Positions 20,434 through 24,767 of a DNA stretch of 64,000 nt are shown in pieces. The position numbers and the translations under genes are program-made. The notes under the pieces are model-generated. The model did no database searches. It was not told the DNA's origin and saw nothing but the letters and a program-made list of their open reading frames with translations. This stretch comes from Escherichia coli (GTDB lineage Bacteria; Pseudomonadota; Gammaproteobacteria; Enterobacterales; Enterobacteriaceae): assembly GCF_013122565.1 (NCBI RefSeq), contig NZ_CP053258.1. One strand, written 5' to 3'. Each line of letters starts with the position of its first letter. Position 1 is the stretch's first letter.

Positions 20434-20506
20434 AAAAAGGCCACTCGTGAGTGGCCAAAATTTCATCTCTGAATTCAGGGATGATGATAACAAATGCGCG
20501 TCTTTC
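20434..20506 (-). ncRNA. micA: MicA (SraD) small regulatory RNA
   Basis: Minus-strand sequence GAAAGACGCGCATTTGTTATCATCATCCCTGAATTCAGAGATGAAATTTTGGCCACTCACGAGTGGCCTTTTT matches the MicA sequence as I recall it, including the intrinsic terminator; convergent with gshA and divergent from luxS. Confidence 0.85.
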
Positions 20507-21090: not shown

Positions 21091-21107
21091 TCAGTGGAAC
21101 AAAAGAA

Positions 21108-21140
21108 GCCGGGCAGGTGACACCACCGCCCGGTTTTTTT
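21108..21140 (+). terminator. luxS intrinsic terminator
   Basis: gccgggcaggtgacaccaccgcccgg hairpin followed by ttttttt; the T-run overlaps the stop codon of the convergent minus-strand gene at 21139. Confidence 0.75.
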
Positions 21141-22251
21141 ACCTTTCAATCACCCGATACTCCACGCTATGTGCTTCATCAGGTTGAGGAACTTCCAGCC
21201 TTGAGGCCATCCGCAGCACGACCGCTTCAGGAACTGCATACTCGCGTCTGGCATTTTGCTGCTTCCATTGCGTCCATGGCACTTCCAGATAAACGATTTT
21301 TACTCGTGCGCCGTAAGCCGTAAACAGACTGATGAGCTGGCTACGCAGCTGGCGGGTAATGTTCGTTGCATTCCAGATGAACGGCTTTTTCTGGCGTAAA
21401 AAAACGCGTGCCTCTTCTTTTGCCTGTTGCACAATACGCCCGGTGGCGGTTTTGTCGTCCGGACTGGCATTGATTCGCCGCCGCATATCATCAAGGCTGA
21501 TAACGTCAATTCCCTGGCACTGTTCACTGATATAGCGATCTTTGCCCATACCCGGTAAGCCACACAGCAAAATAACCTCAAAAGGTTCAGCCCCCCAGGG
21601 AACAAAATCAGGAGAACTTTGCTCATGAGTCAGGTAGTGCCAGCGTGCGGAATCAGAAACGAACGGGCGCACTTTTCCCCAACACTGTTGCTCCTGGCAA
21701 AACAGCTCGAACAGATCGATGCGTTCCAGCATTGATTGCTGATCCGGGCTTTGGCGACCAAGCAGATCGGCACGAGCAAGCAAAGCGAGCAGACGCGTGT
21801 CGATGCGCATTGCAGCCGTGAGCAGCAAACGCTCCGGTTCCGGACGTTCCAGTAACCACAGCGGTAACCCATGCAGACGCACCAGCGCAACAATTTGCTC
21901 GCGTAGCACGAACGGCGTAGGGATATCGCGCCATAAAATTTGTCGGGCCGTCAATTCGCCCCGCCGAGCATGGCCAGGCGACTGAATACGTCCGTTTTCC
22001 TGCACGGTAGTGCTGCGCTTTTCAACATCATGCAATAACGCCGCCGCCCATAAAACTTCCTGCTGTTGAGCGGGGAGTTGCTGGAATTCTGGCAGAGTAA
22101 CGAGGGCGTTCAGCACCATTTCGGTATGCACGCCGACGTCGCCTTCACCATGATGCTCCGGGTCTTGTGGCGTGTGATGCATCTCCTCAACCCAACTGAA
22201 ACGCTGGAGTAGTGTCGACCAGCGTTTATCGTCGGTAAGCTGCCAAATCAT
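21139..22251 (-). CDS. two-domain protein: N-terminal HD-family phosphohydrolase fused to C-terminal P-loop polynucleotide-kinase-like domain (putative RNA end-healing enzyme)
   Basis: 370 aa. N-terminal half carries the HD signature H..H ([11 protein letters not shown]), HD (ALLHDVEKR), H (SPGHARRG), D (LARADLLGR). C-terminal half carries Walker [13 protein letters not shown], then SLDDMRRR and [10 protein letters not shown]...[13 protein letters not shown]...VPEAVVLRM, which parallels the T4 Pnk kinase-domain pattern as I recall it. Start overlaps the upstream gene by ATGA. Confidence 0.7.
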
Positions 22252-22955
22252 GACTGTTCTCCATAAGCGAACTCATGGGCCATCCGCGCCCGTTGCCAGT
22301 GTCGTTTCCAGTGCACGGTGGTTTTGACATGATTTTTGCGCACATACTTGAAGACGTTATGCGAAAAGTCAGCGACGGAAAACGCATCACGATTCCGGCT
22401 GACAATGCCTTCCAGCGTACAGGGTTGCCCGGTTTGTGTATCCCAGGGATCGAACGCGCCGCGCGCATTGGTCAGTGCCAGAAAATCACGTTGCCAGCTT
22501 TTTTCATCATTCCCCGGCTGCGGACCGGAGATTTCGGGAACGCAGGGGAAATCAAACAGAGCGGCGTAAAACTGCACCTCTTCCCAGCTCAGCCACATAT
22601 CCTGGCAGCGAACGGCAAACAGGTAAAAGTCCTGTTCCAGCGCGCGGTATTCAATGGAATGAACGGCGTAGAGATTTTCACCAAACAGTTCCAGATCGCC
22701 GAGATCGTTTTTCAGCAGTTGCCAACGCTGGCGAATTTTATAAGTCCATGCCGACTGCGTAGGCGCAGCATGGGAACGGGCAAACACGCCGTAGCGGTTA
22801 AGGCAGTTATTTTCGCCGTCGAGTTTTTCTGTGTGCACCAGTTGCGCAATGGCCTGTAAATCCTGCCAGTAATCGGCGTTAATGCGGTCATCGCTGGTGG
22901 TGCCAGGGGAGAAAGGATAATGCCAGGTTCTCCCGTATTTTCGTTGGGTATTCAT
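22248..22955 (-). CDS. small nucleotidyltransferase of the ATP-dependent RNA ligase type (putative RNA sealing enzyme)
   Basis: 235 aa. Candidate covalent-nucleotidyltransferase motifs: motif [10 protein letters not shown] (KxDGxN), motif IV-like TLEGIVSRN, motif V-like lysine pair [10 protein letters not shown]. Translationally coupled to the HD/kinase gene. Confidence 0.65.
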
Positions 22956-23175
22956 AATAATCCATTATTTTGTGTGTAATAAATGTACGCCCGCGAGGGT
23001 GCGAGTTATGGGGTTAAAAGAAAAATGTGAGTATCACCCGCGAAAGCGAGGGCGAAGGAAAAAGAGAATTAACAACCTGAGCGAATGCTCAGAACCGGTT
23101 AATGGTGAATGGAAGAGTTTGGGGCGGCGAAAAGATACACCGAATGAGTGGATAAAACAACCGTTTGCAGAATGA

Positions 23176-23205
23176 GCAAATAAAAAGGGAGCCGAAGCTC
23201 CCTTT
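23176..23205 (-). terminator. emrB intrinsic terminator
   Basis: Minus strand reads gggagcttcggctccc hairpin followed by tttttatttg, immediately after the emrB stop. Confidence 0.65.
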
Positions 23206-23212
23206 GACAACC

Positions 23213-24751
23213 TTAGTGCGCACCGCCTCCGCCGCCACCTGCGCCAAAGGGCGGTTTAGCAAACCACACCAGCCCCAGCAGGACGAGGAATATCCCGGCT
23301 GACATCCAGAAGATCTCATTGGCGGAAATAATCAGCCCCTGGTTAGTGATCTGCTGGGCAATCCAGCCTGATGCCTGCTGTTGCGTCATCCCAAGCCCTT
23401 CCAGTTGACTATACATCGCCTGGGCATTCGGGTTGAACGGGTTTACCGACTCAGTCAACTGCGCATGGTGCATCGACTCGCGGTTGGTCCACATGGTAGT
23501 GGTTATCGATGTGCCGATAGACCCCGCCAGCGTTCGCGTAAAGTTGGAGAGGCTCGATGCCGCCGCCAGTCGTTCCGGTGGCAAACCAGACAGCGTAATG
23601 GTGGTCAGCGGCATAAAGAAGCAGGCCACCGCAAACCCCTGGATAAACTGCGGCCATGCCGACGCGCCAAAATCCATACCTGGTTCAAAGGTATAGGCAC
23701 GCCAGTAGAAGCAGACGGCATACATAATAAAGCTGAAGGTTACCAGCCGCCGCATATCCAGTTTATGCGCGAAGCGGCCGATAATTGGCGACAGGATCAC
23801 CGGAATAATCCCTACCGGCGCAGAGGCCAAACCTGCCCAGGTCGCCGTGTAACCGTAGACCTCCTGCAACAACTGCGGCAGCAGAACAATAGCGCCGAAG
23901 TAGAGCATATACGCGAGGCTGATACACAAGCAGCCGATGGTGAAGTTGCGCGACTTAAACAACGACAGATCGACTATCGGGTTATCGTCGGTCAGCTCCC
24001 AGACAATCAGGAAGCAGATAGCCACCACCGCCACCACGGTAAGGATGATAATTTCCTGTGATGAAAACCAGTCCAGCTCTTTACCGCGGTCGAGCATAAT
24101 CTGCAGGCTGCCGATACCAATAACCAGCAGTGCCAGCCCCACGGCATCAATTCGCCGCCGTTCGGTGCGGGTTTCACGTCCGCGCAGAGTTTGCAGTGTC
24201 ATCAACACCACCGCCACGCCAATCGGCACGTTGATGAAGAATATCCAGCCCCAGTGGTAATTATCGCTGATATATCCGCCGAGGATTGGGCCGCAAATTG
24301 GCGCGACAATCACCGTCATCGACCACAACGCCAGCGCGATTGAGCGTTTGGCTGGCGGGTAATTATTCAGCAATAGACTTTGCGAAAGCGGGATCAACGG
24401 CCCGGCGACAATCCCCTGAATCACGCGGAAGAAGATCAGCATATTCAGGCTGCTGGAGACACCACACGCCCACGACGCAATAGCAAAGGCGATGGTTGAC
24501 CAGAGGAACAGTTTCACTTCCCCGACGCGCTTTGCCAGCCAGCCGGTAAGCGGGATCGAGATGGCATTCGCCACCCCGAAAGAAGTGATTACCCACGTTC
24601 CCTGGCTGAGCGATGAGCCCAGATTCCCGGCGATAGTGGGGATCGCCACGTTAGCAATGGTGGAGTCCAGCACCTGCATGAATGTCGCCAGTGACAGCGC
24701 AATCGTCATAATGACCAGTTGCGCGCCTTCCAGCGGTTTTTGCTGTTGCAT
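23213..24751 (-). CDS. emrB: multidrug efflux MFS permease (14-TMS DHA2 type)
   Basis: 512 aa beginning MQQQKPLEGAQLVIMTIALSLATFMQVLD, glycine-rich C-terminus; start trimmed from the ORF-track 24760. Confidence 0.93.
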   Translation of the reverse strand: MQQQKPLEGAQLVIMTIALSLATFMQVLDSTIANVAIPTIAGNLGSSLSQGTWVITSFGVANAISIPLTGWLAKRVGEVKLFLWSTIAFAIASWACGVSSSLNMLIFFRVIQGIVAGPLIPLSQSLLLNNYPPAKRSIALALWSMTVIVAPICGPILGGYISDNYHWGWIFFINVPIGVAVVLMTLQTLRGRETRTERRRIDAVGLALLVIGIGSLQIMLDRGKELDWFSSQEIIILTVVAVVAICFLIVWELTDDNPIVDLSLFKSRNFTIGCLCISLAYMLYFGAIVLLPQLLQEVYGYTATWAGLASAPVGIIPVILSPIIGRFAHKLDMRRLVTFSFIMYAVCFYWRAYTFEPGMDFGASAWPQFIQGFAVACFFMPLTTITLSGLPPERLAAASSLSNFTRTLAGSIGTSITTTMWTNRESMHHAQLTESVNPFNPNAQAMYSQLEGLGMTQQQASGWIAQQITNQGLIISANEIFWMSAGIFLVLLGLVWFAKPPFGAGGGGGGAH

Positions 24752-24767
24752 CACACGCACCTCTGGA

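Follow-up and report, generated by a model that had tools for sequence, protein, structure and literature searches.

In the Escherichia coli contig NZ_CP053258.1 (assembly GCF_013122565.1), emrRAB and a candidate RNA-repair operon lie one behind the other on the same strand, and the locus raises the question of how the operon is controlled from the 257-bp spacer that separates emrB from the first operon gene, which encodes an RNA ligase. The stretch of DNA that was analysed, hereafter the window, is 64,000 nucleotides (nt) long. An original prediction, made from the letters of the window, had seen in the spacer a structured leader that might act as an attenuator or riboregulator. We compared the spacer with 15 orthologous leaders from about seven enterobacterial genera. 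It holds, in the order of transcription, the emrB terminator, a predicted promoter of the operon's own and a C-rich, G-poor 5' untranslated region (UTR) of about 170 nt. In the reading that we favour, and to which we give about an even chance of being correct, a weak promoter is followed by attenuation at a leader hairpin, P1, possibly with a contribution from Rho and possibly with occlusion of the Shine-Dalgarno (SD) sequence.

A predicted promoter of the operon

The upstream part of the spacer contains the following features.

22956-23212, minus strand, spacer between emrB and the ligase gene, 257 bp; the operon strand is the minus strand
23184-23205, minus strand, emrB intrinsic terminator, AAAGGGAGC-TTCG-GCTCCCTTT, with a T tract at 23183-23175; this is the allele of cassette-bearing genomes, and that of K-12 differs
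23132-23160, minus strand, predicted sigma-70 promoter, with -35 TTGTTT (23160-23155), a 17-bp spacer and -10 TATCTT (23137-23132)
23121-23129, minus strand, GC-rich tract CGCCGCCCC directly after the -10 (discriminator and start region), nearly invariant in the alignments

The statement that no obvious strong sigma-70 promoter is present agrees with a consensus scan of the spacer, but it passes over a weak one, TTGTTT-17-TATCTT, that is conserved. Hexamers of the form TTG(T/C)(T/A)(T/A) and TAT(C/T)(T/A/C)T, exactly 17 bp apart, occur at the homologous place in 15 of 15 leaders, and this distance falls within the 17 ± 1 bp of sigma-70 promoters. Within Escherichia the hexamers are invariant and the sequence of the 17 bp between them is variable. 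The E. coli promoter agrees with the consensus at 7 of 12 positions and is missed by the scanner, which calls the homologous promoter in a Superficieibacter-like contig (TTGCAA-17-TATTAT, 9 of 12) and in Enterobacillus (TTGTCA-17-TATTAT, 10 of 12). In Enterobacillus the cassette, with the same promoter and GC-rich tract, stands in a different genomic context, without emrB.

Tracts rich in GC follow the -10 likewise in the leaders of Enterobacillus and of the Budviciaceae. By its likeness to the discriminator of stringent promoters, the E. coli tract suggests a coupling to growth and to guanosine tetraphosphate (ppGpp). Judged by the usual distance between a -10 and a start site, transcription would begin near 23125, about 7 nt after the -10. 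Inspection of the alignment gave no other conserved promoter between P1 and the ATG or on the opposite strand; a TATWAC found between P1 and the ATG is without the T at -7 and is absent in Superficieibacter. E. coli strain CT01 is divergent upstream of the promoter, where another terminator-like hairpin is found and the emrB stop codon is missing from its usual place.

Hairpin P1 and the U-rich tract

Three elements follow in the transcribed part of the spacer.

23105-23114, minus strand, conserved pyrimidine box TTCCATTCAC, predicted to be unpaired, invariant or nearly so
23076-23093, minus strand, hairpin P1, UCUGAGC-AUUC-GCUCAGG, 7 pairs (4 of them G-C), 4-nt loop, -9.5 kcal/mol
23057-23075, minus strand, U-rich tract that follows P1, UUGUUAAUUCUCUUUUUCC; in 15 of 15 orthologs, 4-7 of its first 8 nt are U

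Two GC-rich inverted repeats had been proposed on the operon strand. The first of them, ctgagcattcgctcag, is indeed found there at 23092-23077 and forms the core of P1, a perfect 6-bp stem that is lengthened to 7 bp by the closing U.G pair. In the alignment of the 15 leaders 99% of the P1 cells are paired, and in three of the seven pairs both partners are changed (in the Superficieibacter clade U.G has become G.U; in Superficieibacter electus U-A has become C-G and A-U has become G-C). The covariation score was reached by none of 500 shuffles, and slid controls pair at 22-46%; we take the covariation as supportive, not decisive. Fourteen of the 15 orthologs have a predicted P1 free energy of -8.8 to -10.6 kcal/mol, Enterobacter sp. 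BIGb0383 being the exception at -5.8 kcal/mol, and the loop measures 4-8 nt. P1 has the make-up of an intrinsic-terminator stem (at least 5 bp, GC-rich, with a loop of 3-8 nt, on the transcribed strand), and a scanner flags it as terminator-like in the E. coli window, in the Superficieibacter-like contig and in Kosakonia. Together with the U-rich tract it looks like an intrinsic terminator, at which termination is predicted.

The same palindrome can be read as DNA. P1, with the adjacent AACCGGTT, would then be an operator at which a dimeric factor binds CTGAGC-N-GCTCAG and blocks transcription. The palindrome arms are nearly invariant in most genera, they lie about 30-50 bp downstream of the predicted start, which is a typical roadblock position, and in E. 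coli P1 reads CTG-N10-CAG, a LexA-like spacing. We nevertheless consider an operator highly unlikely. The gap between the arms ranges from 4 to 8 nt among the orthologs, which suits neither a LexA box nor a dimer with a fixed footprint; in Superficieibacter electus both arms are altered and still complementary (CGGGC/GCCCG); and changes on a single side give G.U on the operon strand and C.A on the other, tolerable only in operon-strand RNA. Because the loop varies in length and the wobble variants fit only the operon strand, P1 appears to be an RNA hairpin of that strand and not a protein operator. With up to 3 mismatches allowed, the LexA consensus finds no match in the spacer, as had been noted from the letters alone, and no regulator gene is near. 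The CTG-N10-CAG was itself rejected as a LexA box, being N11-N14 in other genera and GC-rich at its centre; it is a coincidence of the E. coli loop length.

Selection along the leader

Identity to E. coli is unevenly spread over the leader. In the first 65 or so transcribed nucleotides it is 0.82-0.87 for Klebsiella, Kosakonia, Phytobacter and Salmonella. Over the 24 nt that precede the ATG it is mostly 0.8-0.9 (0.79-0.92 to most other genera), with values of 0.58-0.67 for Phytobacter massiliensis and Enterobacter sp. BIGb0383. The middle 100 nt or so, which contain the hairpins P2 and P3 described below, are at about 0.5, the neutral level (4-fold sites, 0.43-0.58). Since the middle block shows neutral-level identity, purifying selection appears to act on the promoter-proximal module and the translation-initiation region and not on the second of the proposed repeats. 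A regulatory 5' leader or attenuator, as originally proposed, is thus borne out in part: about 65 nt are conserved, with a covarying P1 and a U-rich tail in 15 of 15 orthologs, but no global structure is kept and the operon has a predicted promoter of its own.

This pattern bears on two other explanations of P1. One makes it a back-up terminator against drug-induced read-through from emrRAB, with an inactive "promoter" and an operon that either starts near the ATG or lives on residual read-through. Two tandem terminator-like hairpins on the same strand within 130 nt would suit such a role, as would the weak promoter match (7 of 12) of E. coli. It does not account, however, for purifying selection over the 45 nt that separate the -10 from P1 or for the exact 17-bp spacing of the hexamers across genera; no conserved -35/-10 pair lies between P1 and the ATG, and the same promoter and GC-rich tract travel with the cassette in Enterobacillus, in a genomic context without emrB. 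We judge this explanation to be quite improbable.

The other makes the promoter-proximal module a small RNA gene, giving an RNA of about 55-70 nt that would start near 23125, end at P1 and its U-tract, and act in trans through its single-stranded C/U-rich box CUUCCAUUCAC, the operon mRNA being a read-through by-product. Small RNAs derived from attenuators are known. The order of the parts, an unpaired conserved 5' box and then a terminator-like hairpin with a U-rich tail, is that of a small RNA, conservation within the leader is highest in the module, and the box is kept in Enterobacter sp. BIGb0383 although its SD complement has been lost. However, the module is never found apart from the operon. 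All 998 carrier genomes have a single copy, and a covariance model of the 5' module picked up no further copy, whether in the window or among 70 other ligase loci. The U tail is also short and interrupted, poor for an RNA of the Hfq type. A small RNA gene is thus, in our view, quite unlikely. A pattern scan of metagenomes for the leader returned only Kosakonia- and Phytobacter-like leaders and 4 chance matches.

The distal leader and translation initiation

The remainder of the leader contains two more hairpins and the start of the ligase gene.

23035-23054, minus strand, hairpin P2, CGCCCUCG-CUUU-CGCGGGUG
22990-23005, minus strand, hairpin P3, CUCGC-ACCCUC-GCGGG, 5 bp including one U.G
22953-22979, minus strand, translation-initiation region ACACACAAAAUAAUGGAUUAUUAUG, with a weak SD, UGGA (22964-22961), and the ATG (22955-22953)

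The second of the proposed repeats, cgcaccctcgcgggcg, is located where it had been reported (23003-22988), but its arms do not form a proper inverted repeat; P3 is the most favourable stem there, and it stands in the block with neutral-level identity. Hairpins like P3 are also seen in other genera, and an Escherichia sp. shows one change of U.G to U-A. A P2-like hairpin, C(A/G)CCC...GGGUG, recurs in Klebsiella, Salmonella, Kosakonia and Phytobacter with variation among A-U, G.U and G-C. In E. coli P2 and P3 are near-duplicates, so that the 5' arm of P2 can pair with the 3' arm of P3 and the 3' arm of P2 with the 5' arm of P3; the energy of this cross-pairing is about that of the two local hairpins, which predicts a fold with two states. 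Cross-pairing is also found in Klebsiella and P. massiliensis and not elsewhere, and the P2/P3 region is more stable than its shuffles only in Escherichia and Klebsiella.

Folding of the leader, a check that the original prediction had proposed, gives a divided result. Without the emrB terminator, the E. coli leader is more stable than dinucleotide shuffles (z = -3.1; from the predicted start, -3.7 to -4.2), but the whole leaders of the orthologs outside Escherichia fold no better than shuffles (z = +0.3 to -1.5), and a global structure is not conserved. Composition is conserved. With a C/G ratio of 2.1 the leader ranks within the top 0.3% of the 170-nt windows of the 64 kb, and all orthologs share the bias (1.5-2.2), also where their sequences have diverged. 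A C-rich, G-poor composition is typical of Rho-loading regions, and Rho may be involved here.

The UCCAUU of the pyrimidine box is complementary to AAUGGA in the SD region, and the two are paired by RNAalifold. This allows control to be seen as mainly translational: the box would hold the SD (UCCAUU:AAUGGA) until a small RNA, a protein or a cleavage frees it, and P1 would be only structural or stabilising. Box and SD both lie within the two conserved blocks, the pairing probability is 0.6-0.9 in Escherichia folds, and the leaders of Xenorhabdus (16 pairs) and Providencia have predicted counterparts of this pairing that are stronger. The box:SD duplex, however, is 6 bp long (-6 kcal/mol; p about 0.15 versus composition-matched shuffles), and its probability is at most 0.13 in Klebsiella, Kosakonia, Phytobacter and Salmonella. 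The variable pair is G.U in Superficieibacter, A.C in P. massiliensis and A.A in strain CT01, and these natural variants are uncompensated; P. massiliensis, CT01 and Enterobacter sp. BIGb0383 have lost the pairing. We regard mainly translational control as very unlikely, and masking of the SD by the box as a possible addition to attenuation. In CT01 the SD region reads AAUAAAGGA, with a stronger SD and without the upstream AUG.

Coding potential and known elements

The spacer had been called non-coding in any convincing frame, and the comparison agrees. A 67-codon antisense frame and a 58-codon sense frame are not kept in the Klebsiella and Salmonella orthologs, and the conserved block holds a 1-nt indel that would put either of them out of frame. 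A TTG-initiated mini-ORF (open reading frame) after P1 was rejected, its length and sequence differing between genera; an upstream AUG at -10 is lost in two lineages, and no conserved small ORF that could serve as a leader peptide was found in the spacer orthologs.

Rfam 15 gave no family for the spacer at the gathering threshold (searched at E<=1 on 8 kb and at E<=10 on the spacer); the sub-threshold matches were to terminator-like parts of CrcZ and STnc290, plus chance ones. ARAGORN found no tRNA or tmRNA, and no sigma-54 site (TGGCAC-N5-TTGCW, up to 3 mismatches) lies within 22956-23212. The condition-specific factor that had been suggested was not identified: the spacer has no LexA or sigma-54 match, and no regulator gene adjoins the operon in the gene content of the window. 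The RefSeq records inspected annotate no feature in the spacer, and our literature search found no paper on this locus and no start-site map for a carrier strain.

A model for control of the operon

The favoured reading joins these elements as follows. Transcription of emrB would stop at its own terminator, and the weak sigma-70 promoter, with its GC-rich tract after the -10, would start the operon transcript near 23125. Some 30-50 nt into the transcript, P1 and its U-rich tail would act as a moderate terminator, and a large fraction of transcripts would end there, short of the ligase gene. The remainder of the leader, C-rich and unstructured, may add Rho-dependent termination, and the pyrimidine box may mask the weak SD. 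Such a design would keep basal expression of the ligase and the HD-kinase low and insulated from emrRAB, with induction when some trans-acting factor or condition permits read-through. The P1 pairing that is conserved and covaries, the conserved U-tract and the conserved excess of C over G are present in the leaders; promoter activity, the start site, termination at P1, the parts given to Rho and to SD masking, and an inducing signal are what the sequences lead us to predict.

Several points weigh against this model. The compensatory changes in P1 stem from few events, essentially those of the Superficieibacter clade. The U-tract of the E. coli P1 is interrupted (UUGUUAAU), although it still passes the threshold of the scanner, and the E. 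coli promoter match is one that a consensus scan misses. Inspection of the sequence upstream of P1 showed nothing that could pair with the 5' arm of the hairpin, as an anti-terminator would. The whole leaders of the orthologs do not exceed shuffles in stability, and the box:SD duplex is not beyond chance and is broken in three lineages. Lastly, the model depends on a start site and on a 3' end at P1 that are both predictions from sequence.

A defined promoter with an attenuator-like leader would give a handle on when the operon is expressed, and the ligase/kinase pair is widespread. A stress that turns the operon on would point to the RNA that is repaired.

The ligase and kinase genes

The genes around the spacer are as follows.

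23213-24760, minus strand, emrB, upstream of the spacer, preceded by emrR and emrA
23215-23213, minus strand, emrB stop codon
22248-22955, minus strand, RNA-ligase family gene, PF09414, 235 aa, operon gene 1, homologs found
21139-22251, minus strand, gene with an HD-like N-terminal domain and a P-loop polynucleotide kinase, 370 aa, operon gene 2

The two operon ORFs overlap by 4 nt. The ligase matches PF09414 at 3.6e-28 and is 62-65% identical between E. coli and Bacteroidota. The C-terminal domain of the kinase gene matches AAA_33 at 6.7e-31 and the chains of Clostridium thermocellum Pnkp and T4 PNK, and residues 16-105 at its N-terminus give weak matches to HD/HDIG and CCA-enzyme HD domains. 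A LIG/HD-Pnk repair gene pair has been described by Munir & Shuman for Runella slithyformis, and its natural substrate and inducing condition are given as unknown in the available text of PMC6097658. The pair found here agrees with the Runella pair, as described in that text, in gene order, ORF overlap and domain layout; the matches of the kinase to Pnkp and T4 PNK and of its N-terminus to HD domains are the reason for assigning it this layout. "Candidate RNA repair operon" was therefore a fair label by gene order, overlap and domains, the enzyme activities being predicted.

Residues 78-166 of the ligase have PDB sequence matches only to mollusc hemocyanin (6r83 and 4yd9; E = 2e-9 to 1e-6), and no solved RNA ligase in the PDB was matched by sequence. 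Downstream of the operon are the convergent luxS, MicA and gshA. The small RNA MicA (20435-20506, minus strand; Rfam RF00078, 83.9 bits) lies in the gshA/luxS interval, as expected for this locus, and a bidirectional terminator at 21100-21135 is common to luxS and the kinase gene.

Distribution and age of the cassette

The spacer and cassette are present in 994-998 of 5,426 complete E. coli genomes (about 18%), in single copy and always at this site. Among the carriers are ATCC 25922 and E. coli W and, as it appears, many extraintestinal strains (O18:H1, O1:K1:H7). In the O18:H1 strain CFSAN067215, of the 98.7% leader-identity class, RefSeq annotates the RNA-ligase gene as a frameshifted pseudogene.

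In genomes of the K-12 type, luxS and emrB are separated by 63 bp that hold a different terminator. The window resembles K-12 up to the emrB stop codon on one side and up to 5 nt beyond the luxS stop on the other. Because similarity stops at the emrB stop codon, the whole 257 bp, emrB terminator included, is part of the variable segment, and the insertion boundary that had been placed in the leader is not there. A mobile insertion would be marked by a boundary inside the spacer, by flanking repeats or mobility genes, or by presence on phages or plasmids. The phages and enterobacterial plasmids searched held no close homolog of the cassette and PADLOC gave no match to a defence system, and on these grounds a mobile origin and a defence system were rejected.

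The order emrB, leader, LIG, HD-Pnk, luxS is also found in a Salmonella enterica contig, Klebsiella spallanzanii, Kosakonia, Phytobacter, Superficieibacter and an "Enterobacter" sp., and at 4-fold degenerate sites the ligase gene (0.43-0.58) is as divergent as emrB (0.51-0.57) in the same genome pairs. Since the site is the same in several genera and synonymous divergence equals that of emrB, a long residence at the locus, with loss in most E. coli lineages including K-12, is the simplest reading and more likely than a recent arrival. What had been called an insert is thus probably ancestral.

The terminators at the emrB junction appear to be two old alleles. The carriers among E. coli, Klebsiella and Kosakonia have GGGA(G/T)C...G(C/A)TCCC, in which the GGGATC/GATCCC of orthologs is a compensatory change; the Salmonella carrier instead has a K-12-like hairpin (GCCAGTTC...GAACTGGC) upstream of the leader, which would fit an origin of the K-12 state by deletion. 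The evolutionary picture is in this way corrected to that of an old enterobacterial locus that was probably lost from K-12 and not one recently inserted.

Leaders of the same operon elsewhere

A second conserved leader, unrelated in sequence, was found in Xenorhabdus, Providencia and a metagenome-assembled genome of the Neisseriaceae, about 150 nt upstream of locus position 2501. It contains AUGUAAUACC (a start-stop, AUG-UAA), a pyrimidine box, and a covarying hairpin with a U tract 20-40 nt before the start. RNAalifold pairs its 5' box with the SD/AUG region, enclosing the hairpin and U tract; the pairing extends over 16 pairs in Xenorhabdus and is UUUCUC:GAGAAA in Providencia. In Providencia a 9-codon frame, MRPxxGxxM, precedes AUGUAAUACC.

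The Budviciaceae have a third type, in which TAATAT is followed by GCGCNCGCC. About 210-250 nt upstream of the ligase, these bacteria show a -10-like TAATAT, TAGTAT or TAAGAT, directly followed by GCGCNCGCCTTC, which is a GC-rich discriminator like that of rRNA promoters, plus CACCGCGTTTAAT.

By analogy among these leaders, a hairpin with a U-tract and a 5' box complementary to the initiation region seem to be a recurring design for this operon. The recurrence raises the prior for a comparable mechanism in E. coli, as an analogy and not as proof. Taken further, the module of about 65 nt (GC-rich start, CUUCCAUUCAC box, P1 and U-tract) would be an undescribed sensor or attenuator that induces the operon upon damage to the translation apparatus, and would be one of at least 3-4 convergent, unrelated leader families; those of the Enterobacteriaceae, of the Morganellaceae/Xenorhabdus and of the Budviciaceae would share the design of box:SD pairing and hairpin/U-tract. 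We hold this extension to be unlikely.

In Serratia-like bacteria a four-gene cluster encodes RtcB, a protein of the RF-1 family (PrfH-like), LIG and HD-Pnk, with the two halves about 70 nt apart. By its gene content this cluster appears to link the ligase/HD-kinase pair to the RtcB2-PrfH ribosome-repair module, and the RtcB-PrfH association points towards ribosome or tRNA damage.

Comparison with known systems

Among enterobacterial 5' leaders, attenuators with intrinsic terminators are represented by the bgl ribonucleic antiterminator (RAT)/terminator, by pyrBI and by the trp and his leaders. The leader studied here resembles them in having, in its 5' UTR, a promoter-proximal GC-rich hairpin and U-rich tract that are conserved in orthologs. 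It differs from them in that it has no conserved leader peptide, no recognisable anti-terminator, no known antiterminator gene nearby and no Rfam leader match, and in that termination is predicted.

The rpoS leader is a long, Rho-sensitive 5' UTR that occludes the ribosome-binding site. Ours is likewise long and untranslated and has more C than G; its SD is weak, and a segment farther upstream can pair with the SD region. Its complementarity, unlike that of rpoS, is 6 bp and not above chance, it has no known small RNA partner, and a role of Rho is hypothetical.

The promoters rrnB P1 and tyrT are stable-RNA, stringent promoters with a GC-rich discriminator. Here too a GC-rich tract abuts the -10 (CGCCGCCCC in this leader, GCGCNCGCC in the Budviciaceae), but both hexamers are much weaker.

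The rtcBA RNA-repair operon is controlled by sigma-54 and RtcR, and the Salmonella rsr-yrlBA-rtcBA operon carries embedded noncoding RNAs. The operon described here is, like rtcBA, an RNA-repair operon that is presumably silent unless induced, and the Salmonella operon provides a precedent for noncoding RNA elements inside repair operons. In contrast to rtcBA, no sigma-54 promoter, divergent activator gene, Y-RNA or tRNA-like element was found at this locus.

Compared with the LIG/HD-Pnk pair of Runella, the E. coli operon is without the partner genes Tpt1 and methyltransferase (MTase)-HIT, and the work on Runella, in the available text of PMC6097658, concerns the enzymes and describes no leader or regulation. 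Set beside all of these, the E. coli leader appears to be an undescribed instance, present in a few enterobacterial genera, of a familiar class, that of a promoter followed by an attenuator-like 5' leader.

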